Of a stretch of 64,000 bases of DNA, positions 4,514 to 52,912 are shown one piece after another (position 1 is the first letter of the stretch; every line of letters starts with the position of its first letter). The DNA is taken from positions 4,360 through 68,359 of the forward strand of contig DATIIB010000007.1 of NCBI GenBank assembly GCA_035480055.1, given 5' to 3'. Source of the DNA: Candidatus Saccharimonadales bacterium. Lineage in GTDB: Bacteria; Patescibacteriota; Saccharimonadia; Saccharimonadales; DASZAF01. The notes under the pieces are model-generated. The model worked only from the letters and a program-made list of their open reading frames with translations. It searched no databases and had not been told where the DNA came from. Made by a program: the position numbers and the translations under genes.

Positions 4514-5803
4514 CTACTGGCTCACCTTGAACCACTGCGAGTTGTCCACAAAGGCGTGAATGCCAGAACCTGCCGAGACCGCAATCTGCAGCGAAGCTTT
4601 TTTGACATTAATCGAGCTGGGCTTGTAGGCAAGGTTGATGTCCTCCACGAACGTCGACCGTTCACCGCTTTTATACTGGCCAGAGATCCAGTTGCCGCTT
4701 TGATCGTATTCATCGATGTAAAAGGTGACTTCACCGCTGGTTAATTTGTCCACATTCAGGAAGTTTTTGAGCATATAGCTGGCGGTCGAATCAACGTCCA
4801 ACTTTGGTCCAAAAAGATGGACGCTTTTTCCAGTTGCTGCTGTTAGTTCGATCGCATTGGTTGGGCTGGGGTAGCTGCCATTGTTGGCGGTATTTTTGAT
4901 CACTTGTTGCGGGGCATCGGTCGTCCAGCCGTCGGCGATACCATTATCAAAACTATTATTCGGCATCATATTTACCGTGCTAGCCACCGTGCCGGCCGAC
5001 ACATTAACCACTGGCAAATTTTGCGCTTGCACGTAGGCGGCGATTTGCTTGAGGTTAGCGGTGCTGTACTCATAATCGTCTGGGTTAGCACTCGGGTTGG
5101 CCTTGATGTCGTGAAGAACCAAGATGAGCCAAGCATTATTTTGTTTGGCTTGGTCGATATACGTTTTGACTTGAGCGACCGTCACGCCAGCTTGCACCTG
5201 TTTGACATACAGCAAATAGTCATTGTACGGCCAGAGATTGTTACTCTCGGTGTCCCAAAACGGGCGATGCGAGGCATAGTATTTGGAAATACCAGCCAAC
5301 ACTGCATTGTTGTAGTCGCCATAGGGCGTGGCAAACGAGGTTGGATTGAAGCCATGCTGCTGCAACGTCGCTTTGCTATTGACCAGTTCATTCGTAAGAC
5401 GTGTGGCATTGACCTGCGTGAGCTCAGGGTGAGTGACGCTATGTGAGCCAATCTCCCAGTGGTAGGTGTTTTGCAGTTGCGTGACCTGTGGCCAGGTCAT
5501 ATACTTGGCACCTGGGTTGGCAGGACACGTACCTGTAGTCCCCACGCAGCCGCTAATCACATAATCTGTGCCGGTAAAGCCATATTGCGCAAGCGCAGGC
5601 GCGGCGTTTTGTACCGCAGTGGTTAACCCGTCATCAAAGGTAAAGGAGACTTTGGCCGTAGGTGTCGGATTCATAACTGCGGCCTTTGCTGGTGTTGCAC
5701 CTCCAATAGCGAGACCGCCAGCAGCCACTACCATACAGAGGCACGCTGCGATTCTCAGGCGTATCGCCTGCATAGTGAGATTAGTAGTAAAAGGTAAGGC
5801 CAT
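4514..5803 (-). CDS. Secreted/anchored polysaccharide deacetylase (CE4/NodB) with a C-terminal carbohydrate-binding-like domain
   Basis: 429 aa from ATG 5803, with AAGGGGA upstream. N-terminal hydrophobic anchor IAACLCMVVAAGGLAIGG; NodB motifs VSFTFDDG and GSHSVTHPEL; the C-terminal ~140 aa are beta-rich. Confidence 0.85.
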   Translation of the reverse strand: MALPFTTNLTMQAIRLRIAACLCMVVAAGGLAIGGATPAKAAVMNPTPTAKVSFTFDDGLTTAVQNAAPALAQYGFTGTDYVISGCVGTTGTCPANPGAKYMTWPQVTQLQNTYHWEIGSHSVTHPELTQVNATRLTNELVNSKATLQQHGFNPTSFATPYGDYNNAVLAGISKYYASHRPFWDTESNNLWPYNDYLLYVKQVQAGVTVAQVKTYIDQAKQNNAWLILVLHDIKANPSANPDDYEYSTANLKQIAAYVQAQNLPVVNVSAGTVASTVNMMPNNSFDNGIADGWTTDAPQQVIKNTANNGSYPSPTNAIELTAATGKSVHLFGPKLDVDSTASYMLKNFLNVDKLTSGEVTFYIDEYDQSGNWISGQYKSGERSTFVEDINLAYKPSSINVKKASLQIAVSAGSGIHAFVDNSQWFKVSQ

Positions 5804-5816
5804 ATGTTCCCCTTTG

Positions 5817-7616
5817 TTATTGATGCAATATTTTTTGGATCTGTGCATACCCAGGACGTGGCGCTAAGTCGCTCCCAAACAACCCATCTTTGCCAAATTG
5901 GATAGCGCCAGCATCATCTTTCCAGACATCATAGCGGTCTGCGAGAGTCCAGGTTCGCCAGGCAATACAGTTTGGCTCAGTAATGCAGGCGTTGAATACC
6001 GCTGCGTACTGCGCACCTTGAACCGCATCGCCCTCGTCGTTATAAACATCCATTTCGGAGATTTGAGTTTTAAACCCTAAGGCGCCAAGCTGGGTAATGT
6101 GGCGCTTCAGGACCACGGGATCGATCTTGTCACCGGCTTCATATACATGTGCCTGAAATCCAACGCCAAGATGGTCTATCGGCACGCCACAGGCAATGAG
6201 CTGCGCTTTCAGAGTGGTCATGAGCTGCACAAATGTGTCCCAGCGCTCACCGTCAAACTCCAGACCATACTCGTTAATAAAGAGCTGCGCATCAGGGTTA
6301 GCCTGGTAGGCAGCGCGGAAAGCTTTGGCAATATAGTCTTCGCCCATTGCCTGATACCATTTGTGGTTGCGCAGGATATTCCCTTGGCTTGGATCAAAAG
6401 TATCAAAGTCGGCCAGCGGCTCGTTTACCACATCCCATGACCCTACTTTGTTGCCAAAATGTTGCATCACGGTTGTAATGTGTTGCTCCATCAGCTGCGC
6501 AACGTGCTGTTTATCAGCGGCAGTTGCCACCGGTAACGCCGTCAACCAGTGGGGATTTGCTTCGCCAAACACCAAAGCGTGCCCGTGAACTGCAATGCCA
6601 TTTTGCTCGGCCAGGTGCACCAAAAGATCGGCCTGCTGAAAGTAATAATGGCCTTCCTGTGGTTGCAAAAACTGCATCTTCATGGCGTTTTCGGGTGTCC
6701 AACTTCCTACCTGATTACTATCCAAAGCTAACGCCGCATATGCCGGATCGGTGGTCACAGTTGTGGGCGCCATTGCCGCACCGACCGTAAAATCTGCGCG
6801 CTTTTTGTGAGCCAAATACTGTAATCCATCTGGATCATGGGCCGGCGCCGTCAGATCACTGGTGGCGACCATCTTGACCGTACCGCCTTGCTGAGCTTCG
6901 GCAGTAAGGCCGCTCAGCAGCCAACTATCCTGGGCGCTATCGACACCAAACCACAGCCGATTGCTGGCAAGAATATCTTTACTGTCCAGCGTTCCAAGTT
7001 GCGTCCCGCCAGCACTCAGCTGCAGCATTTCACCTTGACGAGTAAGAGTGAGCGCTTGCTGCGAAGCATTTGGTAAAGCAAACGTCTGCGTCGCTGCAGC
7101 GGTTTGACTCGTGCCATCCCAGGTAGTAGCAATAAGCTGGGTGCGGGTGACTGCCAGGCGGACGCTCTTTCGTTCCATCCTAAACTCATCAGCGATAATC
7201 GGCACTTCTCCGTATAATTGCAGCGATGCTGGTTTGTCCGTTACATCTTTTAGCGTCGCTGTGAGCGCAAAGTCGCCGGTCTCCTCAAGGTGCATGCCGA
7301 GATTAATCGGCGGATTAGGCTGGCCGCCCGAACCATCTTGCTCAACAATCGAAAGGTCAGTTTTGGCAACACGAAGCCCCTCTGCCGTGGAACTTACTCC
7401 TGGCACAAAGCGCCAATCGGCCGCGGCCAGCAACGATACTTTATGCGGAACATTTGTATTTTCACCATCTCCCATGCCTGGCTGCTCCCATACGGTTTTG
7501 CTGGCACAGCCTACAAGGAGACCCAGACCTAAGAGCCCAAGCACACCAAAACTAAGAAACCTTCTTGGCCTAATGACTTGATGCCATCTTGCCCATACAC
7601 TTTTCATGCAAACCAT
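5817..7616 (-). CDS. GH10 family glycoside hydrolase (endo-1,4-beta-xylanase-like) lipoprotein with an N-terminal extra domain
   Basis: 599 aa. Lipobox LLGLGLLVGC; GH10 signatures WDVVNEP, FINEYG and TQISEMDV. The ~260-aa N-terminal domain is not recognised. The start could be 7616 or 7607. Confidence 0.85.
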   Translation of the reverse strand: MVCMKSVWARWHQVIRPRRFLSFGVLGLLGLGLLVGCASKTVWEQPGMGDGENTNVPHKVSLLAAADWRFVPGVSSTAEGLRVAKTDLSIVEQDGSGGQPNPPINLGMHLEETGDFALTATLKDVTDKPASLQLYGEVPIIADEFRMERKSVRLAVTRTQLIATTWDGTSQTAAATQTFALPNASQQALTLTRQGEMLQLSAGGTQLGTLDSKDILASNRLWFGVDSAQDSWLLSGLTAEAQQGGTVKMVATSDLTAPAHDPDGLQYLAHKKRADFTVGAAMAPTTVTTDPAYAALALDSNQVGSWTPENAMKMQFLQPQEGHYYFQQADLLVHLAEQNGIAVHGHALVFGEANPHWLTALPVATAADKQHVAQLMEQHITTVMQHFGNKVGSWDVVNEPLADFDTFDPSQGNILRNHKWYQAMGEDYIAKAFRAAYQANPDAQLFINEYGLEFDGERWDTFVQLMTTLKAQLIACGVPIDHLGVGFQAHVYEAGDKIDPVVLKRHITQLGALGFKTQISEMDVYNDEGDAVQGAQYAAVFNACITEPNCIAWRTWTLADRYDVWKDDAGAIQFGKDGLFGSDLAPRPGYAQIQKILHQ

Positions 7617-7845: not shown

Positions 7846-8061
7846 ATGGCAAAACTTCGCGCAGGTGAGGGCGTACTGACGGCGAGCGTGGGTCTTTTCG
7901 CAGCGCCGCTTAACGGACGAGATGCGGGATTCTTTATGTTCGTGGCTTTGGTAAGCATCTTTTGCTGGGTCACGGTCATTATCACCACCATCCTCAGACA
8001 TGGCGCAAAACATATCTACCGAAAAACCAAATCCAAGCGCAATGAAACCGTAGACGTATAG
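7846..8061 (+). CDS. Small single-pass membrane protein preceding the GT2 synthase
   Basis: 71 aa from ATG 7846, with SD GAGGGGGA 9 nt upstream. One TM (FFMFVALVSIFCWVTVIITTIL) is followed by the basic tail RHGAKHIYRKTKSKR. It ends 15 nt before the GT2 start. Confidence 0.55.
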   Translation: MAKLRAGEGVLTASVGLFAAPLNGRDAGFFMFVALVSIFCWVTVIITTILRHGAKHIYRKTKSKRNETVDV

Positions 8062-8076
8062 CTTAAAGGAGAACGT

Positions 8077-9357
8077 ATGGACATTGGGGGAATAATTTTT
8101 TACTTATTTGCGGTCGTCAGCACGGTTTATGTCGTGCATTTGGGCGTCTATCTTACTGGCGCAAACTTTTACGATATTTGGCAGTTTCGGCGTCAACGAA
8201 CCAAGCAGGGTTACCCATCGACAGCAAAGCTTCCGTTGGTGACAGTCGCTATCTCCGCGCATAACGAGGAAAAGGTTATTACTCGTTGCCTTGAGTCAAT
8301 TCGTCATAGCACCTATCCGCATGTTCAGACGCTGGTCGCTGACGATGGCTCCAAAGACGCAACCTATAAAATCGTCAGGCGGTACATTAGGCACCATCCG
8401 CGTCAAAACATTCATCTCGAAGCCATGCCCAAAAATATGGGTAAAGGCCGGGCGCTTAATTTTATTCTGACCCGTTTTGCCAAAGGCGATCTGGTAATGA
8501 CTTTGGATGCCGATTCAATCTTGGCCCCAGACGCGATTGCCAATGCGGTCAGCTATTTTAATGATCCGACGATTGCCGGCGTGGCCGCGAATGTGCAGAT
8601 CATCGAAGAACCAAGCGTGCTTGGAGTGCTCCAAAAGTTTGAGCACATGATTGGCTATCGTTCTAAAAAGACCTATTCGTTGATTAACTGTGAGTTTGTG
8701 ATTGGCGGTGTGGCGTCTACCTACCGGATGGATATTCTGCGCAAGGTTGGATTTTACGACACGGATACCGTGACTGAAGATATCGGCCTTAGCATGAAAA
8801 TTGTCAACCAAGGCAACCGTGCTCATCGAATTGTCTATGCTGTTGATGTGCGCGCAATGACCGAAGGTGTAGATCGCTTTCGCGCCTTGGTCAAACAACG
8901 TTATCGCTGGAAGTACGGCAGCTTACAAAATATCATCAAATACTACCATCTCATCGGAAATAATAATGCTGATTTTACCTTGACGCTTACTTTTTACCGC
9001 ATGCCTATGGCAGTACTGAGTGAGATCGCGTTGCTCGCAGCACCGCTGATTTGGGGGTATACGATATATGTTACTTTATCGCAGCATTCGCTCGCGCTGG
9101 TGATTGGCGCTTATCTGACGATTACGGTATATACCATGATCACCCTTTGGTGGGATGAACACGCCGGGTTCAAAGATCGGCTACGTTTGAGTCTGTTCGT
9201 ACCTGTTGCCTACTTTGTGTTTTATATCATGGATTTTGTGCAGCTGATTGCTATTTTGCGTTGTCTGGCCAAAATGCATCAGTTACTCACGCGTAAAGAT
9301 GTCGGCGGCACATGGGCCTCGCCGCGACGGATTGGACGCGAAGTTCGGGCAGGATAA
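8077..9357 (+). CDS. Processive family-2 glycosyltransferase (PgaC/IcaA/NodC-like beta-glycan synthase)
   Basis: 426 aa with SD AAGGAG. GT-A motifs VTVAISAHNEE, VADDGSKD and TLDADS; processive-synthase Q-x-x-R-W motif QRYRWKYG; TM helices at both ends. Confidence 0.88.
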   Translation: MDIGGIIFYLFAVVSTVYVVHLGVYLTGANFYDIWQFRRQRTKQGYPSTAKLPLVTVAISAHNEEKVITRCLESIRHSTYPHVQTLVADDGSKDATYKIVRRYIRHHPRQNIHLEAMPKNMGKGRALNFILTRFAKGDLVMTLDADSILAPDAIANAVSYFNDPTIAGVAANVQIIEEPSVLGVLQKFEHMIGYRSKKTYSLINCEFVIGGVASTYRMDILRKVGFYDTDTVTEDIGLSMKIVNQGNRAHRIVYAVDVRAMTEGVDRFRALVKQRYRWKYGSLQNIIKYYHLIGNNNADFTLTLTFYRMPMAVLSEIALLAAPLIWGYTIYVTLSQHSLALVIGAYLTITVYTMITLWWDEHAGFKDRLRLSLFVPVAYFVFYIMDFVQLIAILRCLAKMHQLLTRKDVGGTWASPRRIGREVRAG

Positions 9358-9361
9358 TTAT

Positions 9362-11140
9362 ATGGTCAAGAAGAAGCACTCACCTCCCAAAACACCACCT
9401 CGCCGCAAGTTGGTGCGCAGACTTATCAGAAACCCAATCATTGCGATTTTCCCTATCGTCGTGCTGCTATGGTGCGGCTGGCAGTACTATCTGTCGGGCA
9501 GTCGTCATATTAACGCTGCGGCACATAATTTGCTGCCCGGTGGCAATATGCATATCAAGCATGGCAGCAGCCTTCCTGATGGTTGGCAACTCAAAAAAGA
9601 AGGGGCGCTTCAAGCCAGTAGTGCAAGCGTCGAAGGATACGCCCACGGACGAGCGGTCGATGTACATGTCGGTCAGTATCTTAGCGGAGATGTCGCTTTG
9701 GAGACGCCAAAGGTGACGCTATCCCCAAAGACCACCTATCTTTTTAAGGGCTACTACGTGACGACCGGGCCTTTTACATTGCTGGTACGGTATTTCTACC
9801 AAAACGGAACGAGCCGCCTGGAGACAATCCAGCAATATCCCGCTCAAAATGACCCTTGGTCGACCGTGAGCCATGCCTTTACCAGTGGTGGAGATATTAC
9901 GGCGGTGCAGTTTGTATATCGGATGAGTGCAAATGGCGATGTCAAAATTGGCGCGACCTACCTGGCGTCTAAAAATGATCATCTGTACATTGCACCCCAG
10001 CCGAACTTGCCTCAAAATCTTCTGGCCAACAGTAGTTTGGCTGCGCCAGATCCCGACCAAACTGATTCGCCGCAGTATTGGACGCATTATCAAAGCGGCG
10101 CGAATCAAAGTACATTCGCGTACTCGCACGCTCAGCAAGGCTCCTCCCTGCGAAGCGAAGTCCATGACTACAAAGGTGGCGAGGCTAAGTGGCAATTTTA
10201 TCCGCTGACTGTGCAAGCAGGCCAAAGTTTTTGGTTCAGCGTGGATTACCAGAGCACCAGTCCGGTTGAGTTGACGGCAGAGTATGAATTGGCCAATGGT
10301 AATCGTCAGTATGACACCGCCAGGACGCTCGATCCGGCAGGCGACTGGACGCACACTACCGCCCAATTTGAAGTGCCCGCAGGTGCCACAAACATGTTTG
10401 TCTCGTTGGTCCAGCATCACAATGGCACGCTCGCTACCAAGAACTACTATTTAGGAGAAATCACCCGACCTGGCCCACGACGCTTTGCGCATCCACTTGT
10501 GTCGGTGACCTTTGATGATGGCTGGCAATCAAGCTACTACAACGGCGCTCGCCTGCTCGATCAATACGGCTACAAAGGAACCTACTATCTCAATTCCTCG
10601 ACCATTGATACCGGCATTTTTATGAGCAAGCCGCAGCTTCTGGACCTGCAGCGACGCGGGCATCAGTTAGCCGCGCATGGTGACGAGCATGTTGATATGA
10701 CTTCGATCAGTGGACCGCAGATTGATGTGGAACTCAAGCGGACCGCCGAGTATCTGACGCAGCTGCATGTGCAGCACGCCGACTTTGCGACGCCCTATGG
10801 CAAATCAGACGCCGAGGTCCAAGCGTACGCGCGCGCCTACTATCAAAGTCACCGCGGAACCGACGACGGGCTTAATACTAAACAAAACTTTGACCCTTAT
10901 AACCTCAAGGTTGTCTTTATCACCAAAGACACGCCTGCGCAAACTATTAGCGAAGCGCTAGCCAACGCAGCCGAATATAATGGCTGGCTGATTCTGGTCT
11001 ATCATCGGATCGAAGATAAGGTGATCAGCTCCACCACCATCACGCCAGCCACCTTTACCACCCATCTGGAGCTTATCAAAAAAAGTGGCATCCCTGTCGC
11101 GTCAGTCGGGCAAGCGTTTTCAGAGCTTTCGTCTCAATAG
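9362..11140 (+). CDS. Membrane-anchored polysaccharide deacetylase (CE4) with two N-terminal carbohydrate-binding-like domains
   Basis: 593 aa from ATG 9362, 5 nt after the GT2 stop, with AGGA upstream. TM IIAIFPIVVLLWCGW, two ~150-aa beta-sandwich-like segments, then NodB motifs VSVTFDDGW and AAHGDEHVDM. Confidence 0.85.
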   Translation: MVKKKHSPPKTPPRRKLVRRLIRNPIIAIFPIVVLLWCGWQYYLSGSRHINAAAHNLLPGGNMHIKHGSSLPDGWQLKKEGALQASSASVEGYAHGRAVDVHVGQYLSGDVALETPKVTLSPKTTYLFKGYYVTTGPFTLLVRYFYQNGTSRLETIQQYPAQNDPWSTVSHAFTSGGDITAVQFVYRMSANGDVKIGATYLASKNDHLYIAPQPNLPQNLLANSSLAAPDPDQTDSPQYWTHYQSGANQSTFAYSHAQQGSSLRSEVHDYKGGEAKWQFYPLTVQAGQSFWFSVDYQSTSPVELTAEYELANGNRQYDTARTLDPAGDWTHTTAQFEVPAGATNMFVSLVQHHNGTLATKNYYLGEITRPGPRRFAHPLVSVTFDDGWQSSYYNGARLLDQYGYKGTYYLNSSTIDTGIFMSKPQLLDLQRRGHQLAAHGDEHVDMTSISGPQIDVELKRTAEYLTQLHVQHADFATPYGKSDAEVQAYARAYYQSHRGTDDGLNTKQNFDPYNLKVVFITKDTPAQTISEALANAAEYNGWLILVYHRIEDKVISSTTITPATFTTHLELIKKSGIPVASVGQAFSELSSQ

Positions 11141-11776
11141 TTACTGCAGCTCAAAGACCGCCACCGGGCGTGTACAAGTCCCATGCTCGCCCATCTCAAA
11201 CAATCCAAGCTGAGTATAGATACTATGGAACTGCGACAAGGCTGGCAAAGTAGCAAGCTCAACTTGGGTCGTACGAGTCACAAACCGCGTAAAGGTAATG
11301 TGCGGCTTGAAGAGTTCGCCGACTTCGTCGTAGCCGTACGTTTCGAGGTTGTGATGAGCCACGCCGGTAGTTTGCGGGAGCCAGTCAGCCAAGGTATGCC
11401 CTACCGGATCTTTGGTTCGTAGCCCATGCCTCAGCGGATTCAAGCCAGCAATTACTCGTTCCTGCAACGCAATTATCTCCGACGTTTTGTGGTAAAAGAC
11501 CTCAAACATTCCTTCGGTGAAGTTGTGACCATAGTGACTTGCTTGCAGTTGCAGCGGGCGTGTCTGGCGGGCGATTCCTTGCAGGCGCGAGAATGTTTCT
11601 TGCAGTTGACCAGATAGAATGTTCAGCATATACAGCGAAAGGTGCGGGTAGAGATGGTCGGCTTGCAAGGTAAACTCCGTCCCCAATGGTTTCAGTTGGC
11701 GGCTCACCGCAATCGACGCATCGCGCACAGCTGCCGGAGGCAGCAAAACAACATCATAGACAGGAAGTTCGTTCAT
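11141..11776 (-). CDS. 2H phosphoesterase superfamily protein (LigT / cyclic phosphodiesterase-like)
   Basis: 211 aa. It has two H-x-[ST]-x motifs with appropriate spacing: YPHLSLY and KPHITFTR. Confidence 0.6.
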   Translation of the reverse strand: MNELPVYDVVLLPPAAVRDASIAVSRQLKPLGTEFTLQADHLYPHLSLYMLNILSGQLQETFSRLQGIARQTRPLQLQASHYGHNFTEGMFEVFYHKTSEIIALQERVIAGLNPLRHGLRTKDPVGHTLADWLPQTTGVAHHNLETYGYDEVGELFKPHITFTRFVTRTTQVELATLPALSQFHSIYTQLGLFEMGEHGTCTRPVAVFELQ

Positions 11777-11788
11777 GCTTACGGCCGT

Positions 11789-12823
11789 CTACTTTTGAGG
11801 AGGCCGATCTGGTACCGGTGGAAGCTCCGATGCCACCGGCGGAACGACCTTGTGCGGGAGCAACTTGGCAAGCACCAACACTCCCACGCCCAGCACCACT
11901 ACAGCAATGGCGTATTCCAGCCACACCGTGCGCACTTGGTGAGTGAGTAGTTGAATGACCGACGTCACCTTAGCTTGCAGCAATTCGTTTTGTTGCGTCG
12001 CAGCGGTGAGCTTGGCGATCGCTTTGCGAAGCGCAAAGTCGCCAAACCAGGCCAACAAACCGCTACTTATACCGACCGTTACTGCACCAATGCCGACACG
12101 GCGCAGCGCAATCTTTTTGGTCTGATCCAACAGAATAATACCCGCCGCCGCCAACAATGCCGCGATGCCGGTGGCATAAATAGCCAGCACCGCGCTGTGA
12201 TAGGCTGCTGGAACGCCGTGGAACTGCTGAGGGATGGTTTGACCCTGATTATTCTTGAGCGTATCAGCGGTCAGCGTAGGCTGCGACAACGAGCCATTCA
12301 CGTTCAAAATGTCATGCTTCGCTTGAGCCACCGCCGTGGGAATATCAAAACCTGTCGGCACGCAGGTCATCGTAAAGGCATTCAGATCTGTGGGCACTGT
12401 GGTGCAGGTGGGCAACGAAGTGAGACGCTGCTGAACATAATTGGCGATATTGGTCGCCAAATTCTCTCGCGCCCCATTAATATCGATACTAAACTGCGGC
12501 GACGGCGTCTTGCCCTTCAGCCAGTCAAACGTGCCCTCAATAATCTGGTTGGCATCGCTGCGCAACAAAGACGCCGGAAAGGCTTGCTGAATGGCTGATT
12601 GAATCTGTGGTTGCTCAATCGGAATGTTATTGGTTTGATTGCTTTGCTGCGCAAGCACGTCGTGAACCAGCGAATCGTAAATGCCACTTTTGTCTAAGGC
12701 ACCTTCGATGGTATGTGGAGTGGTCAGTACTACCTGAAGGCTCAGCAAAAGGCCGAAGCTAAACAACGTGGCAGAAAAAACTGAATACAGAAGGGTGACT
12801 GCGACTCGGCGCATAAAATGCAT
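11789..12823 (-). CDS. Membrane protein of unknown function
   Basis: 344 aa. An N-terminal TM, a ~200-aa extracytoplasmic region, 3-4 C-terminal TMs and a Pro-rich tail. No family recognised. Confidence 0.6.
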   Translation of the reverse strand: MHFMRRVAVTLLYSVFSATLFSFGLLLSLQVVLTTPHTIEGALDKSGIYDSLVHDVLAQQSNQTNNIPIEQPQIQSAIQQAFPASLLRSDANQIIEGTFDWLKGKTPSPQFSIDINGARENLATNIANYVQQRLTSLPTCTTVPTDLNAFTMTCVPTGFDIPTAVAQAKHDILNVNGSLSQPTLTADTLKNNQGQTIPQQFHGVPAAYHSAVLAIYATGIAALLAAAGIILLDQTKKIALRRVGIGAVTVGISSGLLAWFGDFALRKAIAKLTAATQQNELLQAKVTSVIQLLTHQVRTVWLEYAIAVVVLGVGVLVLAKLLPHKVVPPVASELPPVPDRPPQK

Positions 12824-12844
12824 ACGTATAGTGTACGCTAGATT

Positions 12845-13720
12845 TTACTGTGTCACAATCTGCTTCCACGGCCCGTCAGGGACTTTGGACGCAGGCACTA
12901 ATGACCAATCGGTCGTGTCCACATCTTGGAGATGCAAATAATCATGGACTGCCGGCGATACATCGAGGCCAGCCTTGGCGCCCCACGTATTACGAAAGGC
13001 GCTGTTGCCAAATACATAGTCCACATCGTCTTCGCCAAGCGGCCCCGCGTCTTCCCACTGCGCATAGACGACCTGGCCATTGTGACGGATCATCACCCAG
13101 CTGTTTTTGCACCACGAGCGGTTCGCATCGGTCTGCACGGCAGTAGGGAGACATTTTTGCGCCGACGCTTTGCGTTTGCCCTTGGCATCGAAATCATTAT
13201 ATGGCAAAGCGATGTAGAAAGGATTTTCCTTTGGCTTAAAAGCTGCTGGCCACCAACCATTTCGGGACTGAGGGGTGTCTGCGCCACCAAAGTGCTGTTG
13301 CCATTGGTCGTCCCAAGCGCTCGCGACATTGGTAATGTAATCATTTTCGCTATCGGCCGGTTCGCCAACCCAAAAAAAGGTTGTAGTGATATGCGTATGC
13401 GTCCAGTCGCCAGAGGATGAGTTGCTGCTGGAAGAACCTGCCAAGCCGGTTGGAGTTGATTTGGAATTTGTAAGCGGCGCCATACTCACAAGTGTTGTCA
13501 GTGGGACAGACAGTGGATGTAACAAGCCATACAGAGCTGAGTGCCCCGACCTTGCAGGCGCTAAAGCCTGCGCGCTTAAAGCGACAACGCTCACAACAAT
13601 AATCGCCGCCGCTAGTCCGCTACTCAAAAGACGCCGCCCGCGACTGTAAAAGCGTCGCGGGAGAGGCGTCTTGAGCGAAGGATGCAGGTACTTGGCTTTA
13701 GAGCTGCGGTTGAATCTCAT
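12845..13720 (-). CDS. Secreted protein, possibly with an RlpA/expansin-like double-psi beta-barrel domain
   Basis: The start is uncertain. The track uses GTG 13756; ATG 13720 still overlaps the upstream gene by 23 nt. A signal-like LLSSGLAAAIIVVSVVALSAQALA is followed by TTFFWVGEPA, NPFYIALPYND, and YAQWEDAGPLGEDD..GLDVSPA, which resembles DPBB proteins. Confidence 0.45.
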   Translation of the reverse strand: MRFNRSSKAKYLHPSLKTPLPRRFYSRGRRLLSSGLAAAIIVVSVVALSAQALAPARSGHSALYGLLHPLSVPLTTLVSMAPLTNSKSTPTGLAGSSSSNSSSGDWTHTHITTTFFWVGEPADSENDYITNVASAWDDQWQQHFGGADTPQSRNGWWPAAFKPKENPFYIALPYNDFDAKGKRKASAQKCLPTAVQTDANRSWCKNSWVMIRHNGQVVYAQWEDAGPLGEDDVDYVFGNSAFRNTWGAKAGLDVSPAVHDYLHLQDVDTTDWSLVPASKVPDGPWKQIVTQ

Positions 13721-16001
13721 TAAGCGCCTGGTCAACAGTTTCAACTGTGACACCACTCTGCTTAATGTTGTTCAACTCTGCATCAAGGTTGGCAGGAGTC
13801 ACTGCATAGGTTGGGTCAGCAGCTGCAGGGTCAACTTCGTGGTAAACCAGCACCAACCAGGTCTTGTTGGCGATCGCCTGATTAACCCATGCCTGAACCA
13901 TGGCAGGAGTGGTAGTGTTCTCGACATTCTGTACTTTAATGTTGTAGATGTCGAAGCTGTCTTTACTGTTAAAGCCAACGTCGGTTGAACGGTGCGAGCG
14001 GTAGAACTTCTTGATCTCGGTAATGACACTACTGTTGTAGGCGCCGTATGGAGTGGCGAAGTTGTTGGCCACACCAGGGGTTCCAAACCAGCTGCGGAGT
14101 TGGTTTTGCGAACCGCTCAGCTCAGCGTCGATCTGGGCAACGGTCAAAGTGGTGAGGTCAGGGTGAGTCATAGTGTGTGCTGCGACTTCGTTACCCGCGC
14201 TCTTCCAGGCAGTCATTTCAGCAAGAGTCATGTAGTCTGGGTAGCCATCGATTGTTGGCTGAGTCAGCATGTAACCGGTTGCAACCATGTTGTACTTCTT
14301 GAGTAATGGCAAGCCATTGGTCTCAATAGTCTTCCAGGCATCGTCGAAGGTCAGGCTGACCATGGCACGATTGAACTGCGCAGGAGCATATGGCGCAAAG
14401 CTGAAGTCATCGGTTTGGACAAAGCCAACTTTGGTAAGCGCTTGGAAGATAGTGATACTCTTGGCACCAGCTGGAGCGGTAAACTGTGCCTTGACCTGTG
14501 CCCATGCACTTGGGCTCGCAGAAGCGGTTGCCAGGTAGAAATACTGGACGGTGCCGTCGGTCATGGTGACCTGGGCATCAACTTCGCTATCAACGCTGGA
14601 TTCATACCAGTTGCTGTATTGGTACTGTGCCCCTGGAGTAATGGCAATGTCGTCGAAGTACCATTTGGCGTCACCGTTGGTGTATGCACTCATGGTGGTC
14701 TTGACACTGTGGCTGCCGGTGTGGCCAGTGTTCTCAACAGTTGTGGTGTGAGTGTTAGTACCCCAGCCGTCTGCGCGCCAGTTGGTTGGGAGGCCGCTGG
14801 TCAGTGTTTCAACTGAAGGGTTCAAAACCAGGTTGGTTGCTGGTGGCGTTACTGGAGGAGTCACAACTACGTTATTAACGGTGACAGCTACTTCAGTTGA
14901 AGTGGTACTGAGGTTGGCTTGGTTGGTGGCAACTGCAGTCAGTTTGTGAGCGCCGTTGGTTACTTTGGTGGTGTCCCAGTTATAAGTGTAAGGTGCGGTC
15001 GTGAGGGCGCTGCCGAGATTTACGCCGTCCAGCTTGAACTGTACCGAAGTAATACCTTGCGCGTCGCTCGCAGCAGCGGTAATGGCTTGAGTGCCAGAGA
15101 CAGTTGCGTTATTTGCAGGAGCGCTGAGCTGTACGGTTGGAGGAGTTGGATTGTTCACCGTCACGGTAGCGGCAGTAGAAGTAGTCGTGAGGTTTGCAGC
15201 GTTGGTTGCTACAGCGGTCAAGGTGTGCGTTCCATTGGTGGCCGTTTTGGTGTCCCAAGTGGTGCTGTACGGAGCGGTCGTATCAGCTGCACCGAGGTTG
15301 GTACCATCGAGCTTAAACTGTACCGAAGTGACACCAACTGCATCACTGGCAGTTGCGGTGATTGTTTGCGTACCGCTGACGGTGGCACCAGTAGTTGGAG
15401 CGGTCAGTTGTACGGTTGGCGCAGTTGCGACAGGAGGAACTGGAGTGACAGGAGGAGTCGTAGGAGTACCGGTGCCAAAGCTGTAATCGTCAACAGTCAA
15501 AGAGCCGTTCGCTTGGATGTAGTGGAAAAAAGTCACGCTCTTGGCGCCGGTAGGAGCCTTGAAGCTAAAGCTCGCCTGTTTCCAATCGGTGCTGGCGGCA
15601 AAATCGCCCTGCCATTTGTACTGAGTCTTGCCAGCGGTAGTGGTGATCACTGCATCGATGCTGTTCTTGATACCACTTTTGTACCAGTCGCTAAAGGTGT
15701 AGGTTGTGCCAGGAGTGACAGTGACTGGAGAAAAGTACCACTTTGCGTCTCCGCTGGTGTAGTTGCTCATCTTCACGGTTGCACTGTGGCTGCCGGTGTG
15801 GCCAGTGTTCTCGTACGTGTAGGCAGTAGTGTTAGTACCCCAGTTATCTTTAAGCCAGCCAGTTGGGCTACCGCTCGTTGCGTCTTCAAAAGAAGCGTTG
15901 GCAACCAGGTTAGCGTCAGCGGCAAAAGCTGTGGCGATTGGTGATTGAACCGCTGCGACAACAACCAAGATTGCGCCGATTAATGATAGTACTCGCTTCA
16001 T
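13698..16001 (-). CDS. Large secreted modular polysaccharide deacetylase: CBM-like, two Ig-like domains, CBM-like, then CE4
   Basis: 767 aa with SD AGGAG. Signal peptide ...AVQSPIATAFA. Two paralogous ~150-aa domains share (N)TGHTGSHS...GDAKWYF. There is a tandem Ig-like repeat. C-terminal NodB motifs are VSLTFDDAW and AAHTMTHPDL. Confidence 0.88.
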   Translation of the reverse strand: MKRVLSLIGAILVVVAAVQSPIATAFAADANLVANASFEDATSGSPTGWLKDNWGTNTTAYTYENTGHTGSHSATVKMSNYTSGDAKWYFSPVTVTPGTTYTFSDWYKSGIKNSIDAVITTTAGKTQYKWQGDFAASTDWKQASFSFKAPTGAKSVTFFHYIQANGSLTVDDYSFGTGTPTTPPVTPVPPVATAPTVQLTAPTTGATVSGTQTITATASDAVGVTSVQFKLDGTNLGAADTTAPYSTTWDTKTATNGTHTLTAVATNAANLTTTSTAATVTVNNPTPPTVQLSAPANNATVSGTQAITAAASDAQGITSVQFKLDGVNLGSALTTAPYTYNWDTTKVTNGAHKLTAVATNQANLSTTSTEVAVTVNNVVVTPPVTPPATNLVLNPSVETLTSGLPTNWRADGWGTNTHTTTVENTGHTGSHSVKTTMSAYTNGDAKWYFDDIAITPGAQYQYSNWYESSVDSEVDAQVTMTDGTVQYFYLATASASPSAWAQVKAQFTAPAGAKSITIFQALTKVGFVQTDDFSFAPYAPAQFNRAMVSLTFDDAWKTIETNGLPLLKKYNMVATGYMLTQPTIDGYPDYMTLAEMTAWKSAGNEVAAHTMTHPDLTTLTVAQIDAELSGSQNQLRSWFGTPGVANNFATPYGAYNSSVITEIKKFYRSHRSTDVGFNSKDSFDIYNIKVQNVENTTTPAMVQAWVNQAIANKTWLVLVYHEVDPAAADPTYAVTPANLDAELNNIKQSGVTVETVDQALNEIQPQL
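14871..15422 (-). repeat. Tandem duplication of a ~92-aa Ig-like module inside the CE4 gene
   Basis: aa 194-284 (PTVQLTAPTTGATVSGTQTITATASDAVGVTSVQFKLDG...TVNN) versus aa 288-377 (PTVQLSAPANNATVSGTQAITAAASDAQGITSVQFKLDG...TVNN). A related module occurs in the protein at 21179-22762. Confidence 0.85.
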
Positions 16002-16143
16002 TATGATGTCTCCTACTTAGACTGCTCGTTTGTCTCATCAAACTACTATGTTGCACAAAAGTCAATACTATTCGTAATAGCGCTTAAGGTGTTATGAAGC
16101 ATAAGCGTTGTATTGACTTTAGGGTTAGAATATGAAAATATAG

Positions 16144-16171
16144 TTGACTTTTGTACTATAAAGTATATAAT
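16144..16171 (+). promoter_or_regulatory. Near-consensus sigma70 promoter (TTGACT-16-TATAAT) for the micro-ORF/CE4/GT2 operon
   Basis: TTGACT at 16144-16149 and TATAAT at 16166-16171. A second TTGACT lies at ~16113. Confidence 0.6.
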
Positions 16172-16209
16172 GCGGTTAAGTATCAAAGACCTAACGGGAG
16201 TAAGGCAAC

Positions 16210-16386
16210 ATGTACGAACAAACCGGCGGAATGGGCGGCTTTATCGCTCCAGCAACAACAGCAGTAATCACTCTACCTTTGACAGGTGGTAACCTTCTTG
16301 TGCAAATCGCTATTGCGATCGCAGCTGGTCTGACAGTATGGGGCATCCTCAACGCTCGTCAGCGCAAACTGCAAAAAGCACAGTAG
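16210..16386 (+). CDS. 58-aa micro-protein consisting essentially of an LPXTG-type cell-wall sorting signal
   Basis: Below the track's size cutoff. ATG 16210, GGGAG upstream, TAG at 16384-16386. Translation: MYEQTGGMGGFIAPATTAVITLPLTGGNLLVQIAIAIAAGLTVWGILNARQRKLQKAQ. This reads as LPLTG, then a 21-residue hydrophobic stretch, then an R/K tail. No N-terminal signal peptide. Confidence 0.55.
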   Translation: MYEQTGGMGGFIAPATTAVITLPLTGGNLLVQIAIAIAAGLTVWGILNARQRKLQKAQ

Positions 16387-16409
16387 TTTCCTTTATATAA
16401 GGACACACC

Positions 16410-17372
16410 ATGAAACTGAGTAAAAAAGTGGGCACGGTGGGAACACACTCAGCTCGTGCAAAGCGCACTAAGCCACGCCGTTTTCGACGTGGTTTAGTGA
16501 CAACCTTAGCGGTCCTGGTGAGCTTATTGCCAGTTGGCTCAATGGGCTATCTTGGCTGGGCCGTATATCGGAATGTCTTTCACGATAGCCGTCCGACCGC
16601 TTCTCTTTCGTATGTAAATCGAAGTATAACTGGCCTGACGCCGTTTTCCACTCCCATGGTCAGCGTCACCTTCGACGATGGCTGGGAATCTGCGTACAAA
16701 AATGCAGCCCCAGTGCTGAGTCAGTACAACATCCCGTCGACTTTTTATATCATTACCGATACTTTTAACGACCCGCAGTACTTATCAACTGATCAGATCA
16801 AATCGCTCCTGGCTAGTGGCCACCAGATTGAATCACACACCGTCACGCACCCTAACCTCACCCAGGTCAACGACACGCAGCTAGGTAAAGAACTGAGCAA
16901 TTCCAAGAATACGCTGCAAAAATTAGTTAATGGCCCGGTCACCGACTTCTCTTCTCCGCTTGACGCCTATAACGATCATGTTATTGCCGCGATTAAGGCA
17001 CAGGGGTATCGCTCGCACCGTACGACGGACGCAGATCTTACCCGCGACCCTTACAATCTGAACCTGGCCAGCACCTTTAATCCGTACCGCATTCAAGCCT
17101 ACACAGTGCGCAACACCACAACCACTCAGCAGCTCCAAGATTATCTGGCATACGCCCGCGAAAATAAAGCTTGGGTCGTTCTGGTGTACCACCAGGTAGA
17201 ATCCAGCAAGGTGGAAGTACCCGAGAAAGACCGCTACGCCGTATCGCTTAATGCCTTTAAAGAGCAGATGAAGTTGGTGAATGAGAGCAACATGCGAGTT
17301 GTCACCATGGAGCAAGCGCTTGACGCTATTGCCAAGCAACCTGCGGTACCATCTCAAGGAGACACCAAATGA
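16410..17372 (+). CDS. Membrane-anchored polysaccharide deacetylase (CE4)
   Basis: 320 aa with SD AAGGA. TM LVTTLAVLVSLLPVGSMGYLGWAVY; NodB motifs VSVTFDDGW and ESHTVTHPNL. Confidence 0.88.
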   Translation: MKLSKKVGTVGTHSARAKRTKPRRFRRGLVTTLAVLVSLLPVGSMGYLGWAVYRNVFHDSRPTASLSYVNRSITGLTPFSTPMVSVTFDDGWESAYKNAAPVLSQYNIPSTFYIITDTFNDPQYLSTDQIKSLLASGHQIESHTVTHPNLTQVNDTQLGKELSNSKNTLQKLVNGPVTDFSSPLDAYNDHVIAAIKAQGYRSHRTTDADLTRDPYNLNLASTFNPYRIQAYTVRNTTTTQQLQDYLAYARENKAWVVLVYHQVESSKVEVPEKDRYAVSLNAFKEQMKLVNESNMRVVTMEQALDAIAKQPAVPSQGDTK

Positions 17373-18436
17373 GTAAGCAAAAACCAATGATCGCCTTAAT
17401 TATCTCTGGCTACAACGAAGAAAAAGTGATTGCCCGGACGTTGGAATCAGCCATCACTGCTGGCATGCGCCGCGAAGATATCTATGTGGTGAGCGACAAC
17501 TCCAGCGACCAAACCATGGCTGTCGCGCGCACCTTACTGCCTGACGTCAATGTCATGGAAGTGGAACGGAGCGGTAAAGGCTTGGCTCTGAGTAAAGCTG
17601 CTGCTGCATTTGGTTTGACCGAACGCTATCGTTGGATTCACGTTGCTGACGCCGATGGCGGTTTTGCGCCGAACTACTTCCGCGTACTGCGCCGTGAACT
17701 ACGCGTTAAGAACGCAGCAGCCACCGGCTACATCACCAGCACCAAAAACTCCATGATTGGGCAATACCGAGTGATGGAATACACCGTGGGTATGGAAGTG
17801 GTCCGCCGCTTTCAATCATTTGGCCAAGTGGTCAGCGTGATTCCTGGACCAAGCTCTTGCTTCCGCGCAGATGTGTTTAAAAAGCTCGACTTTGCCAGCG
17901 GCGCTTTAGCCGAAGACTTCTGCGTCACCTTGCAGATTCACCGCCAAAAACTTGGTCCCATTCAATATATCGAAGACGCGGTGGTCTTTACGCAGGACCC
18001 GCAAACCTTCCGCGACTTTACCCGCCAGATTCGTCGGTGGAACATCGGCATCTTGCAAGGTATCAAAATGTACAAGATCGGTTTGCGCCCACAACGCATC
18101 GACGCGTACCTGACGTACCAAGTTATGCAGAACCTGATGATGTTCTTTACCTACGCCATCTGGCTACCCTACCTGGCTTTTAGCCAGCACAACTTTGCCT
18201 TATTCCCGCTGGCCTTTCTGACTGACTTCAGCCTAACGCTGCTTCTTACCACGCTCACAGCCAAACGCGCCAAACGATGGGATATCCTGGAGTCGTTGCC
18301 CAATATTTACGGGCTTCGTTGGGTTGCCCTATGGGTCTTTATGTCAGCCTTCGTAAAGGTGATGATCTTCAATCAGCACCGCGTTGGCCGCAGTAATGGC
18401 ATCTGGCAACCGGTCGCTCGTAAAGCGGTTAGCTAG
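17369..18436 (+). CDS. Family-2 glycosyltransferase (processive synthase-like) with C-terminal TM helices
   Basis: 355 aa, with an ATGA overlap with the CE4 gene. Motifs: IALIISGYNEE, VVSDNSSD, HVADADGG, and Q-x-x-R-W-like RQIRRWNIG. Confidence 0.82.
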   Translation: MSKQKPMIALIISGYNEEKVIARTLESAITAGMRREDIYVVSDNSSDQTMAVARTLLPDVNVMEVERSGKGLALSKAAAAFGLTERYRWIHVADADGGFAPNYFRVLRRELRVKNAAATGYITSTKNSMIGQYRVMEYTVGMEVVRRFQSFGQVVSVIPGPSSCFRADVFKKLDFASGALAEDFCVTLQIHRQKLGPIQYIEDAVVFTQDPQTFRDFTRQIRRWNIGILQGIKMYKIGLRPQRIDAYLTYQVMQNLMMFFTYAIWLPYLAFSQHNFALFPLAFLTDFSLTLLLTTLTAKRAKRWDILESLPNIYGLRWVALWVFMSAFVKVMIFNQHRVGRSNGIWQPVARKAVS

Positions 18437-19589: not shown

Positions 19590-20324
19590 TTAGAACAAAT
19601 GCTTCACAGCTTGGAAGGCGTTTTGGCTTCCGCTCGGCAGCGTCATGGCTTTGGGCGTATGCATTTCGGGTGCAACCTGGTTAGCATCCACGGCAGGAGA
19701 AATCTGTTTGGCCTGAATCACCAAACGATTGAGTGAAGTTCCCACAGGAGTACACGTGATAAGCGTCAATGTGGGAGTTGCAGTTTGAGCCAGCACCGAA
19801 GTATCGTTCGGGCGAATCACTTTGCGTGTGGTGACTTCATAAATATATTGTTTGCCTTGGTAGTTGGCGTATAGCTTATCCCCGATTTGCACTTGGTCGA
19901 GCATCATAAACACAAATTTGTACGAGCCAGGCGCCCACGGCGTGTTGCTGGAGTGGCCCAGGATGACCGTATTTCCGCCATTACCTGGTGCAGGCGTTCC
20001 GGCAAAAAGGAGGACGCCGCTTTCGAGTGCTTTTTGCACATCTTTTTCGAGCGGACTGGGCATGTTAGTAACAATCGGCGCGGTCACGCTAATGCGCGGA
20101 ATGATCAGCTCGGGCTGGGTGTATTGCGGTGAAGTTTGCGAGCCTGTGGCAGAAGTCTGTGGCAGCGTTGGAGGTGCGGCCGCCATAACCGGCTTGTGAA
20201 AGGCCAGCATGCTGCGGCCCACAATTAACTGGGCGTTAAAAATGCCAAGCAAGAGCACGGTAGTGGTAATGCCGATAAGGGGTGCACGCCAGGCGCGCCA
20301 TGTGGTAGATCGGGGACGATGCAC
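19590..20324 (-). CDS. Sortase family transpeptidase
   Basis: 244 aa with a GTG start and AAGAGG upstream. N-terminal TM; catalytic His region NTVILGHSSN; active-site TLxTC motif LTLITCTPVG; and a downstream R (SLNRLVI). Confidence 0.85.
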   Translation of the reverse strand: MHRPRSTTWRAWRAPLIGITTTVLLLGIFNAQLIVGRSMLAFHKPVMAAAPPTLPQTSATGSQTSPQYTQPELIIPRISVTAPIVTNMPSPLEKDVQKALESGVLLFAGTPAPGNGGNTVILGHSSNTPWAPGSYKFVFMMLDQVQIGDKLYANYQGKQYIYEVTTRKVIRPNDTSVLAQTATPTLTLITCTPVGTSLNRLVIQAKQISPAVDANQVAPEMHTPKAMTLPSGSQNAFQAVKHLF

Positions 20325-21066: not shown

Positions 21067-21123
21067 GGCTTCTATTATGCAATACCTTCGCCTAATTTCC
21101 TCATTACTTTCGGTTGACACCCG

Positions 21124-21132
21124 TGCTATAGT
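21124..21132 (+). promoter_or_regulatory. Possible extended -10 element (TGCTATAGT) for the gene at 21179
   Basis: Direct reading. It lies 47 nt upstream of the ATG. No clear -35. Confidence 0.3.
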
Positions 21133-21178
21133 TAAGCCAAAGTAAGCACAAGCTTCACTAAAATTTGGAGAGATCGCC

Positions 21179-52881: not shown

Positions 52882-52912
52882 TGGCTTACCAAGTAATTCG
52901 GATGCAAAGTTA

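Follow-up and report, generated by a model that had tools for sequence, protein, structure and literature searches.

The PgaABCD system of Escherichia coli and the IcaADBC system of Staphylococcus combine a membrane glycosyltransferase of family GT2, carrying the motifs D, DxD, TED and QxxRW, with a deacetylase of family CE4 that acts outside the membrane and with a small membrane protein encoded in the same operon. This small protein, IcaD or PgaD, has two transmembrane (TM) helices. The synthase PgaC depends on its partner PgaD (PMC8461298). In PEP-CTERM/exosortase (EpsH) systems, a sorting signal and its processing enzyme are found within exopolysaccharide (EPS) loci that also include CE4 and glycosyltransferase genes (Haft et al. 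2006, PMC1569441). GspA of Actinomyces oris is a glycopolymer-bearing LPXTG protein anchored by the housekeeping sortase (PMC6381275), and SafA is a single-pass protein of 52 amino acids genetically linked to a sortase (PMC9282373). Here, we describe two modules, each with a tiny single-pass membrane peptide, a GT2 and CE4 deacetylases, in a stretch of 64,000 nt from Candidatus Saccharimonadales bacterium (GenBank assembly GCA_035480055.1, contig DATIIB010000007.1, positions 4,360 to 68,359). This whole stretch is termed the window, and coordinates are counted from its first nucleotide. One of the two peptides carries an LPXTG motif near a sortase gene. In the literature searched, we found no description of a cassette of miniLPXTG peptide, sortase, GT2 and CE4, and no paper linking such peptides to glycan synthases.

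Operon 1 runs on the plus strand from pep1 (7846..8061; 71 amino acids, single-pass) through GT2_1 (8077..9357; 426 amino acids) to CE4_1 (9362..11140; 592 amino acids), and operon 2, on the same strand, from pep2 (16210..16386; 58 amino acids) through CE4_2 (16410..17372; 320 amino acids) to GT2_2 (17369..18436; 355 amino acids). An initial annotation had claimed these two three-gene operons; all six of their open reading frames (ORFs) were recovered in the ORF listing, each peptide indeed consists of one hydrophobic helix and a K/R-rich tail, and the GT2 and CE4 identities are borne out by Pfam domains. Within the operons, the gaps measure 15, 4 and 23 nt and CE4_2 overlaps GT2_2 in a 4-nt ATGA, while purine-rich sequences resembling ribosome-binding sites precede the gene starts. 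The best sigma-70-like promoter in 16.5 kb scanned lies ahead of pep2 on the plus strand (16144..16171; TTGACT, 16 nt, TATAAT), predicted by consensus match only (11 of 12 positions). A terminator-like hairpin (18412-18430) coincides with the end of GT2_2. Overlooked in the initial annotation were LPLTG as a motif of pep2 (residues 22-26; nt 16273-16287), a sortase gene on the minus strand (19590..20324), and two conserved partners, also on the minus strand: p303 (12845..13756), a TM-anchored protein conserved in related modules, and CE4_3 (13698..16001), a secreted protein of 767 amino acids.

The same association recurs in related loci. We inspected the DNA upstream of the GT2 in 36 GT2_1-family loci from different species, 35 of which could be assessed, since the remaining one ends at a contig edge before the upstream region. 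For GT2_2, a metagenome scan with its sequence alone gave only three loci; individual homologues were looked up instead, which resulted in nine further distinct loci besides the window. A related peptide is encoded upstream in 31 of the 35 assessable GT2_1-family loci and in all nine other GT2_2-family loci with upstream sequence, a gene arrangement far beyond chance. Domains were assigned with Pfam and NCBIfam, and structures were modelled with AlphaFold2 (AF2) and compared with the PDB by Foldseek. On the whole, we consider it rather probable that the stretch between 4.5 and 20.3 kb is a cell-envelope glycan island with two ancient paralogous modules of synthase, CE4 and tiny peptide, the peptide family being minimal sortase substrates. 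In this joint reading, module 1 would comprise pep1, GT2_1, CE4_1 and the minus-strand genes CE4_0 (4514..5848) and GH10 (5817..7616; glycoside hydrolase family 10), and module 2 pep2, CE4_2, GT2_2, the sortase, p303 and CE4_3.

The motif-bearing membrane GT2, the CE4 acting outside and the small membrane protein encoded in the operon are shared with PgaABCD and IcaADBC. Unlike those systems, the GT2s reach 146 and 67 bits where the PgaC/IcaA equivalog demands 422; the peptides, of a family with an LPXTG signal, have a single TM helix and do not resemble PgaD or IcaD; and there is no PgaA porin, cyclic di-GMP element or GH153 here, the neighbouring hydrolases belonging to GH10, GH46 and GH6. 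By sequence criteria, the cassette is outside both the PgaC/IcaA equivalog and the IcaD/PgaD families. LPXTG/sortase sorting, including that by dedicated pairs, resembles the cassette in other respects: pep2 has LPxTG, helix and basic tail, the substrate gene adjoins that of the sortase, and the module sortase scores above the cut-off of the general sortase model, its His, Cys (TLITC) and Arg-containing regions being present. The differences are that the substrate is here nearly all sorting signal, with 17-21 residues ahead of it and no signal peptide, that the sequence of its TM helix is conserved, that a glycan synthase and a deacetylase are its fixed genetic partners, and that the sortase fits none of the classes A-F. 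The nearest concept is the link of PEP-CTERM/exosortase with EPS: a C-terminal motif, TM helix and basic cluster are likewise associated with EPS-type genes, and GT2_1 has a match to an XrtG-associated GT2. Nevertheless, the enzyme is a true sortase (PF04203) instead of a multi-pass exosortase, the motif is LPXTG and not PEP, the organism is a monoderm-like Patescibacterium, and the substrates are peptides of some 57 amino acids rather than proteins. GspA differs in being Sec-exported, LCP-glycosylated and, as a monomer, found at the 25-kDa marker, whereas the modules revealed no LCP gene; SafA, with an FPW motif but without LPXTG, shields its sortase from signal peptidase, whereas the peptides described here are without FPW.

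In pep2, 21 residues are followed by LPLTG, a single TM helix and RQRKLQK as a basic tail; a signal peptide is absent. The layout of an LPXTG sorting signal (motif, hydrophobic helix, basic C-terminal tail) is present in pep2 and absent from pep1. Judged from this layout, pep2 is a minimal sortase substrate, with cleavage by the sortase predicted. The sortase itself matches PF04203 at 91.4 bits and the general sortase model TIGR01076 at 64.8 bits (cut-off, 39.35), and contains GHS123 and TLITC187; it stays below the cut-offs of the class A-F models (best, 69 bits versus 160). The sortase and CE4_2 are predicted to have N-in TM anchors with their domains outside, and the LPLTG of pep2 to lie at the outer face of the membrane.

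We distinguish three types of module by their peptide: type A has an LPNTG peptide, a sortase and a GT2; type B has a peptide like pep2; and type C has a peptide like pep1, without LPXTG. The GT2_1-family loci comprise 21 of type A, ten with a type-C peptide followed by the GT2 and four with neither, the window itself being type C. The 21 type-A species encode a miniLPNTG peptide, a sortase of about 200 amino acids and the GT2, in that order and each directly ahead of the next; their peptides (51-62 amino acids) read MY(E/G/Q)G..., VVLPNTG(G/S)N, TM helix, R..AK.A.KA. In type B, the order peptide, CE4, GT2 is kept in all nine further loci, with a sortase beside the operon wherever the sequence sufficed, and most loci also encode a p303-like protein and a large Big_7/CBM (carbohydrate-binding module) CE4. 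LPXTG occurs in nine of the ten type-B loci including the window: seven have LPNTG, one LPATG and the window LPLTG, while in L045 the motif is degenerate. A hidden Markov model (HMM) was made for each peptide family and run against some 10,000 stop-to-stop frames from all loci; the family-B HMM finds pep2 with E=1.6e-26.

A database search with a profile of 20 peptides, in which 8,000 candidates were scored, gave at least 443 members, this count being a lower bound. Among the best 120, the median length is 57 amino acids, LPNTG occurs in 116 and a Met-Tyr start in 113. In the databases, they are named "hypothetical protein" or, for some members in NCBI and JGI, generically LPXTG anchor protein. 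From the side of the peptide, two database members were sampled and both stand in the order CE4, peptide, sortase, GT2. The L, P, T and G of LPXTG are invariant across the 20 aligned peptides. Across 23 loci, LPNTG is written with five kinds of Leu, two of Pro, three of Thr and three of Gly codons, and the codon differences are most frequent at third positions (0.60 versus 0.36 and 0.33). This synonymous variation, greatest at third positions, indicates protein-level selection on the peptide. The small ORFs, whose lack of conservation would by the initial annotation have refuted its claim, have related peptides across loci and bear the mark of selection. Ahead of the motif stand 10-51 residues (median, 17), with no charged n-region and no separate hydrophobic core; the standard N-terminal part has about 17-21 residues, is rich in Gly, Ala, Val and Thr, and usually begins with Met-Tyr. 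Mini-pilins polymerised by sortase via Lys were rejected as a general explanation, many members being without Lys. The pilus reported for the Candidate Phyla Radiation in a 2026 preprint is unrelated to the cassette.

Pep1 has no LPXTG: APLNG stands in place of LPNTG, and it shares the TM helix and the R..AK..Y tail with the miniLPXTG peptides. The family-C HMM recognises it with E=1.4e-21. Type-C peptides (54-86 amino acids) directly precede the GT2 in L002-L009, L011 and L012, and another does so in a locus from Geodermatophilus (L046). They have the common pattern F.A..S...W......R, and their operons are without LPXTG and contain no sortase gene. Below its own members, the type-A HMM ranks the pep2-type peptides (E=7e-7 to 8e-5), followed by pep1 (E=0.003) and other type-C peptides, ahead of its first decoy (E=0.098); conversely, the type-C HMM retrieves type-A peptides at E=9e-6 to 0.04, also ahead of its first decoy. 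Going by these HMM relations, pep1 probably descends from the miniLPXTG family with loss of LPXTG, and is kept in operons that lost the sortase gene. A phmmer search with pep1 against 1.84 billion representatives returned pep1 itself, one true homologue (60% identity, 74 amino acids) and three spurious TM matches, and tblastn gave no match outside its own genome. Synteny and family HMMs were used because sequence search is too insensitive for this peptide family. In L007 (5771-11663), a type-C module (peptide, GT2, CE4_1) stands immediately ahead of one of type A (LPNTG peptide, sortase, GT2); since this locus carries both, types A and C coexist and are not simple mutual replacements.

Geodermatophilus belongs to the Actinobacteria and has 71% G+C. 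Its locus (L046/L047, 5762-12645) is a one-strand operon of a 74-amino-acid peptide, GT2, CE4, CE4 and GH10, in which the GT2 is 59-60% identical to GT2_1 and the peptide shares GRDA...S...W...R. By these similarities, the locus shows that the type-C operon was transferred between phyla, and points to an exchange between Actinobacteria and their likely Saccharibacteria epibionts. That the small ORF is a gene also receives independent support from this operon. A read-through of pep1 into GT2_1 as one fused protein (7846-9357) was considered and rejected, as the C-terminus of the peptide is cytoplasmic and the N-terminus of GT2_1 outside, which a 6-residue link would join in a false topology.

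In GT2_1, a single N-terminal TM helix precedes the GT-A domain and further TM helices follow it at the C-terminus; GT2_2 has a GT-A domain, interface helices and three C-terminal TM helices, and no N-terminal one. That a TM helix is hidden by a wrong start of GT2_2 was rejected, the extensions in longer homologues being hydrophilic and basic. The motifs of GT2_1 are D144/D146 (DAD144), T233-E234-D235 (TED233) and Q274-R275-x-R277-W278, those of GT2_2 D94/D96 (DAD94), E182-D183 (AED181) and Q220-x-x-R223-W224 (QIRRW220), so that the two motifs named in the initial annotation were located, QRYRW at residue 274 and QIRRW at residue 220. D, DxD, (T/A)ED and QxxRW are invariant in the two family alignments (54 and 58 homologues). 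The AF2 models have a pLDDT of 86.5 (GT2_1) and 88.5 (GT2_2). For both, the best full-length matches in the PDB are the hyaluronan synthases of Chlorella virus and Xenopus, followed by chitin synthases and BcsA; the TM-scores on the query for hyaluronan synthases range from 0.71 to 0.73 for GT2_1 (7sp9 and 7sp6, 0.73; E ~1e-15) and from 0.74 to 0.79 for GT2_2 (8sne, 0.79; E=4.6e-15). The GT-A domain, interface helices and TM bundle can be superposed on solved synthases, placing both in the processive membrane GT2 fold. The top NCBIfam model for both is the PgaC/IcaA equivalog TIGR03937, to which GT2_1 aligns end to end (E=1.9e-42) and whose catalytic motifs (D, DxD, TED, Q(R/Q)xRW) both enzymes have; the second-best model of GT2_1 is the XrtG-associated GT2 (108.6 bits). 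GT2_1 also matches the NodC model, and CE4_2 the NodB model, both weakly. The claim that each operon pairs a GT2 of processive-synthase fold with a CE4 is upheld by these matches to hyaluronan synthase, chitin synthase and BcsA, by the invariant motifs and by the PgaC/IcaA model.

The two GT2s are only 27% identical to each other, as against 50-62% to their own orthologues, which occur in many Saccharimonadia. As the initial annotation had argued, the modules are diverged and do not stem from a recent duplication; on these identities, we consider them to be old paralogues.

All four CE4s have an N-terminal anchor or signal and, intact, the motifs for metal binding and catalysis (Asp-Asp, His-x3-His and catalytic His, here TFDD(G/A), H(S/T/G)xxH and (L/V)(Y/L)H), for which reason they are probably active outside the membrane. 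They match PF01522 with 65-96 bits (cut-off, 23.1), and are about 30-37% identical to one another, forming one CE4 subfamily. CE4_0 (PF01522 E=1.6e-19; motifs TFDDG, HSVTH and LILVLH) is signal/TM-anchored and has a C-terminal beta-sandwich (CBM-like) domain; its orthologues (41-61% identity) lie at most 6 kb from the GT2 in about 30 of the 36 GT2_1-family loci. CE4_1, which is TM-anchored, was said to have two CBM-like domains, and this holds: Pfam finds CBM_4_9 at residues 73-185, ahead of PF01522 at 378-492, and the region 219-381 resembles the CBM_4_9 of CE4_3. Orthologues of CE4_1 are located directly downstream of the GT2 in L002, L003, L005-L008, L011, L012 and L046. CE4_2 (PF01522 E=2.6e-27; TFDDG, HTVTH, VVLVYH) has a TM helix at residues 28-46 following a basic N-terminal tail, and its gene separates those of the peptide and the GT2 in every type-B locus. 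CE4_3 consists, according to Pfam, of CBM_4_9, two Big_7, CBM_4_9 and the CE4 domain, and its orthologues (44-62% identity) in L038, L042, L044, L045 and L048-L050 are always within a type-B module.

Orthologues of p303 (38-61% identity) adjoin either the sortase or the large CE4 in L038 (5256-5807), L042 (6874-7425), L044 (7310-7858), L048 (834-1733), L049 (458-1372) and L050. Most of the 81 invariant columns, several Trp and two Cys among them, fall in its conserved C-terminal domain (residues ~120-302 in the window). Neither Pfam nor NCBIfam gave a credible match for p303, and a 4-sequence profile had no PDB match at E<=10. As a guess, its fold may be a double-psi beta-barrel or glycanase-like. 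In L045, two GH46 genes stand where p303 would be, on account of which p303 may be a glycan-cleaving enzyme.

The GH10 protein of the window has an N-terminal hydrophobic anchor with a lipobox-like LVGC (PF00331 E=9.6e-68), and its gene is divergent from operon 1. GH10 occurs at most 6 kb from the GT2 in ten of the 36 GT2_1-family species loci, and in Geodermatophilus in the same operon. Neighbours of type-B modules include, apart from the two GH46 genes of L045 (6930-8731), a GH6 gene in L051 (6395-7417) and a GH97 gene in L041 (6957-8885), and a glyoxal-oxidase (GlxA-like) protein with CBM-like repeats in L044 (1-1703). The GH6 and GlxA-like neighbours recall the cslA-glxA-cslZ locus of Streptomyces. 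GH10, GH46 and GH6 are families of beta-1,4-acting enzymes, GH46 being the chitosanase family. The presence of these hydrolases beside related modules leans away from a beta-1,6 polymer such as poly-N-acetylglucosamine (PNAG), and makes a beta-1,4 chain of chitin or chitosan type, deacetylated in part, at least as likely. The proposal of a PNAG- or chitin-like product in the initial annotation agrees with PgaC/IcaA as the best HMM, and its PNAG side suffers from scores far under the cut-off and from hydrolases of beta-1,4 families. Genes of the type found in cell-wall precursor synthesis were also seen near related modules, encoding HTH (helix-turn-helix)-fused EPSP-synthase-family (MurA-like), MurB-like and Glycos_transf_4 (MraY/WecA-like) proteins in L049 (6882-8405, 10838-11098), L050 (9845-11308), L052 (8191-10180) and L053 (7207-8745, 10146-10183). 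Such neighbours fit a cell-wall context.

In the mechanism that we propose, the synthase would polymerise and extrude a beta-linked N-acetylhexosamine chain, probably of N-acetylglucosamine, and the CE4s would partly de-N-acetylate this chain outside the membrane. The peptide would insert N-out/C-in, its conserved TM helix remaining at the synthase. In module 2, the sortase would cut after Thr25 and move the 25-residue N-terminal part onto an amine of the envelope, either that of a peptidoglycan stem peptide or that of a glucosamine freed by CE4, and with either acceptor, polymer and wall would become coupled. Module 1 would operate with the LPXTG-less form of the peptide, seen where the sortase gene has left the operon. 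We hold it for no more than a tentative idea that the outcome is a peptide-decorated or peptide-anchored glycan made by an undescribed route, in which the sortase puts the N-terminal part of 21-25 residues on CE4-freed amines or the peptide bridges polymer and peptidoglycan. The former would be a counterpart of NodABC acylation that runs outside the cell with a ribosomal peptide, and in both cases a sortase would serve the biogenesis of a polysaccharide instead of the display of proteins.

Several observations weigh against this reading. The cut-off of TIGR03937 (422.3 bits) is missed by both GT2_1 (145.7 bits) and GT2_2 (66.9 bits), and both also strongly match the solved structure of PcManGT, a mannosyltransferase from Pyrobaculum. 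This enzyme is non-processive and has a minimal fold resembling that of cellulose synthase. Judging from the model, GT2_2 with its three TM helices probably could not form a channel on its own. Classical sortase substrates carry a signal peptide, which these peptides lack, and pep2 has no match to the LPXTG anchor model TIGR01167 at E<=0.01, its homologue in L042 scoring 16.1 bits against a cut-off of 15.9. The evidence for homology of types A and C consists of modest E-values, and the peptides compared are hydrophobic. An unrelated gene (18429-19499) stands between operon 2 and the sortase in the window. GH10, CE4 and CBM4_9 are, furthermore, a typical set of xylan degraders, and the window also contains GH16, GH92, phosphoketolase and acetate kinase genes. 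Finally, while gene content, motifs, folds, synteny and the kinship of the peptides were observed, it is from these that we infer the sugar, its linkage, processivity, the contact of peptide and synthase, sortase cleavage and the acceptor.

The initial annotation placed the peptides in the logic of IcaD and PgaD. Kinship with these proteins fails for the pep2 family, whose members are LPXTG substrates with a sortase in the module, and for both window peptides in having one TM helix each and no match at E<=0.01 in Pfam or NCBIfam, among whose models any for IcaD or PgaD would have been searched. A wider version, in which the peptides are purely IcaD/PgaD-like subunits activating PNAG-type synthases and the LPXTG and nearby sortase are incidental, seems unlikely to us. 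It would account for peptide genes heading both operons, for the TM helix and tail as the part conserved in type C with LPXTG lost, and for a GT2_2 with three TM helices that might need partner helices, and it agrees with PgaC/IcaA as the best NCBIfam family of both GT2s and with the need of PgaC for the small membrane protein PgaD (PMC8461298). It leaves aside the invariant L, P, T and G in 20 peptides and the LPNTG of 116 out of 120, kept via synonymous codons, as well as the sortase in the module in 21 type-A loci and in the type-B loci. The single TM helix, versus two in IcaD and PgaD, and the want of any sequence match speak against it as well. What stands of the initial proposal of a small membrane peptide as synthase partner is that the small ORFs are real and conserved; what falls is their identity with IcaD/PgaD, pep2 being an LPXTG substrate and pep1 an LPXTG-less derivative. 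By analogy with PgaD, and in view of the conserved helix and of a GT2_2 with three helices, a synthase-subunit role of the TM helix is possible, and may explain why type C persists without LPXTG, but neither the invariant LPXTG nor the sortase. An equally doubtful alternative is canonical anchoring with the peptide as a glycan carrier, being glycosylated or priming the chain, for instance at Tyr2 or its Thr-rich stretch, before the sortase links the glycopeptide to peptidoglycan and the polymer is thereby bound covalently to the wall. The Met-Tyr start in 113 of 120 members and the N-terminal part rich in Thr, Gly, Ala and Val would suit such a role, as would the murA- and murB-like genes adjoining the module in L049, L050 and L053; lipid II is the usual sortase acceptor (PMC1569441), and GspA of A. 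oris is an LPXTG protein that bears a glycopolymer and is anchored by SrtA (PMC6381275). Within the modules, however, no LCP enzyme or O-glycosyltransferase was detected, the catalytic domain of the GT2 is cytoplasmic whereas the N-terminal part of the peptide is predicted to be outside, and Tyr2 is missing in L048, L049 and L032. To our knowledge, synthases of the GT2 fold do not use peptide primers.

The remaining two alternatives concern what the CE4s and hydrolases do. NodC is a GT2 that synthesises chitooligosaccharides, NodB a CE4 that frees an amine, and NodA an acyl transferase acting on the amine so made; formally, sortases too transfer an acyl (peptidyl) group to amines, so that a similar logic might run outside the cell, with CE4 exposing glucosamine amines and the sortase N-acylating the glycan with the hydrophobic peptide of 21-25 residues. 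The parallel is one of logic only, as the Nod steps are cytoplasmic and the group is a fatty acyl, whereas CE4 and sortase are here extracytoplasmic and the donor is a peptide. We think it quite improbable, even if peptide, sortase, GT2 and CE4 travel together, the CE4 gene of type B lies between those of the peptide and the GT2, and CE4, sortase and LPXTG are all predicted at the outer face of the membrane. In type IX secretion (T9SS), cargo is linked by an amide to an amino group, a bond formed by a sortase-like enzyme. One study of T9SS describes cargo joined through an amino-bearing linking sugar (PMC7468200). The 2-amine of glucosamine is, on the other hand, a hindered nucleophile. We know of no natural sortase that uses a sugar amine as its nucleophile, although Samantaray et al. 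in 2008 reportedly found that sortase A accepts some amino sugars in vitro. Since type-C modules retain their CE4s without sortase or LPXTG, deacetylation has a role of its own, which also tells against a pathway of this kind. Least probable in our eyes is a mixed bag, in which GH10, the CBM-bearing CE4s and the genes beside them are catabolic xylanase and acetyl-xylan-esterase genes, the GT2s are of the non-processive PcManGT or lipid-carrier type, and their clustering reflects a generic surface neighbourhood. CE4 does include acetyl-xylan esterases, the chief xylanase family is GH10, and CBM4_9 has xylan and glucans as ligands; GH16, GH92, phosphoketolase and acetate kinase occur in the same window, and PcManGT is the top Foldseek match of GT2_1 by E-value. 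The TM-scores are, nevertheless, higher for hyaluronan synthases (0.71-0.79) than for PcManGT (0.55-0.66), and QxxRW and (T/A)ED are invariant. Synthase-dependent systems usually have a cognate hydrolase, such as BcsZ, PslG or the C-terminal domain of PgaB. The tight same-strand operon of Geodermatophilus (peptide, GT2, CE4, CE4, GH10) and the presence of a CE4 within the operon in every type-B locus argue for a coupling to the synthase; some genes of the island may be purely catabolic.

Between GT2_2 and the sortase lies a Pro-rich ORF of 356 amino acids on the minus strand (18429-19499), without a family match. As tblastn found no counterpart in any of the fetched loci, it looks like a lineage-specific insertion into the module. 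Two minus-strand genes between the modules, an ORF of 211 amino acids (11141-11776) and a three-TM membrane protein of 344 amino acids (11789-12823), were likewise not found among related loci; in the former, two H-x-T/S-like motifs seen by eye suggest a 2H-phosphoesterase. Further envelope genes flank the island at the sortase: one for a membrane protein of the SfLAP (Sap, sulfolipid-1-addressing protein) family (20395-21303, minus strand), which adjoins the sortase gene, and one for a Big_7/fn3/CarboxypepD_reg surface protein (21179-22762, plus strand). More distant are a phosphoketolase (XFP) gene followed by one for acetate kinase (24286-27839, plus strand), GH16 (33956-35863) and GH92 (44603-46906), which together with GH10 suggest a sugar-scavenging, fermentative lifestyle. 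The section 52001-56000 has a G+C content of 0.42-0.46, versus ~0.52 elsewhere, and may be a foreign insert. Rfam identified only a tRNA-Gln in the whole window and no riboswitch preceding either operon.

Saccharibacteria live attached to other bacteria, and their surface chemistry is central to this lifestyle and almost unknown. The cassette described here is widespread and conserved, with at least 443 peptide members, and occurs in most Saccharimonadia genomes sampled; it links a sortase and a substrate that is a near-bare sorting signal to a synthase of the chitin/PNAG type and its deacetylases. The coupling of peptide, sortase, synthase and CE4 is robustly conserved and unexplained, and we can but infer its function. 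The recovery of these genes shows that very small ORFs missed by sequence search can be retrieved via synteny. The LPXTG-less cassette in Geodermatophilus may make part of the system experimentally accessible, provided that the strain can be cultured. Should the sortase work on the glycan or in its service, the known scope of sortases would widen from protein display to include the attachment or modification of polysaccharides, and the cassette would be the monoderm counterpart of the link between PEP-CTERM/exosortase and EPS.

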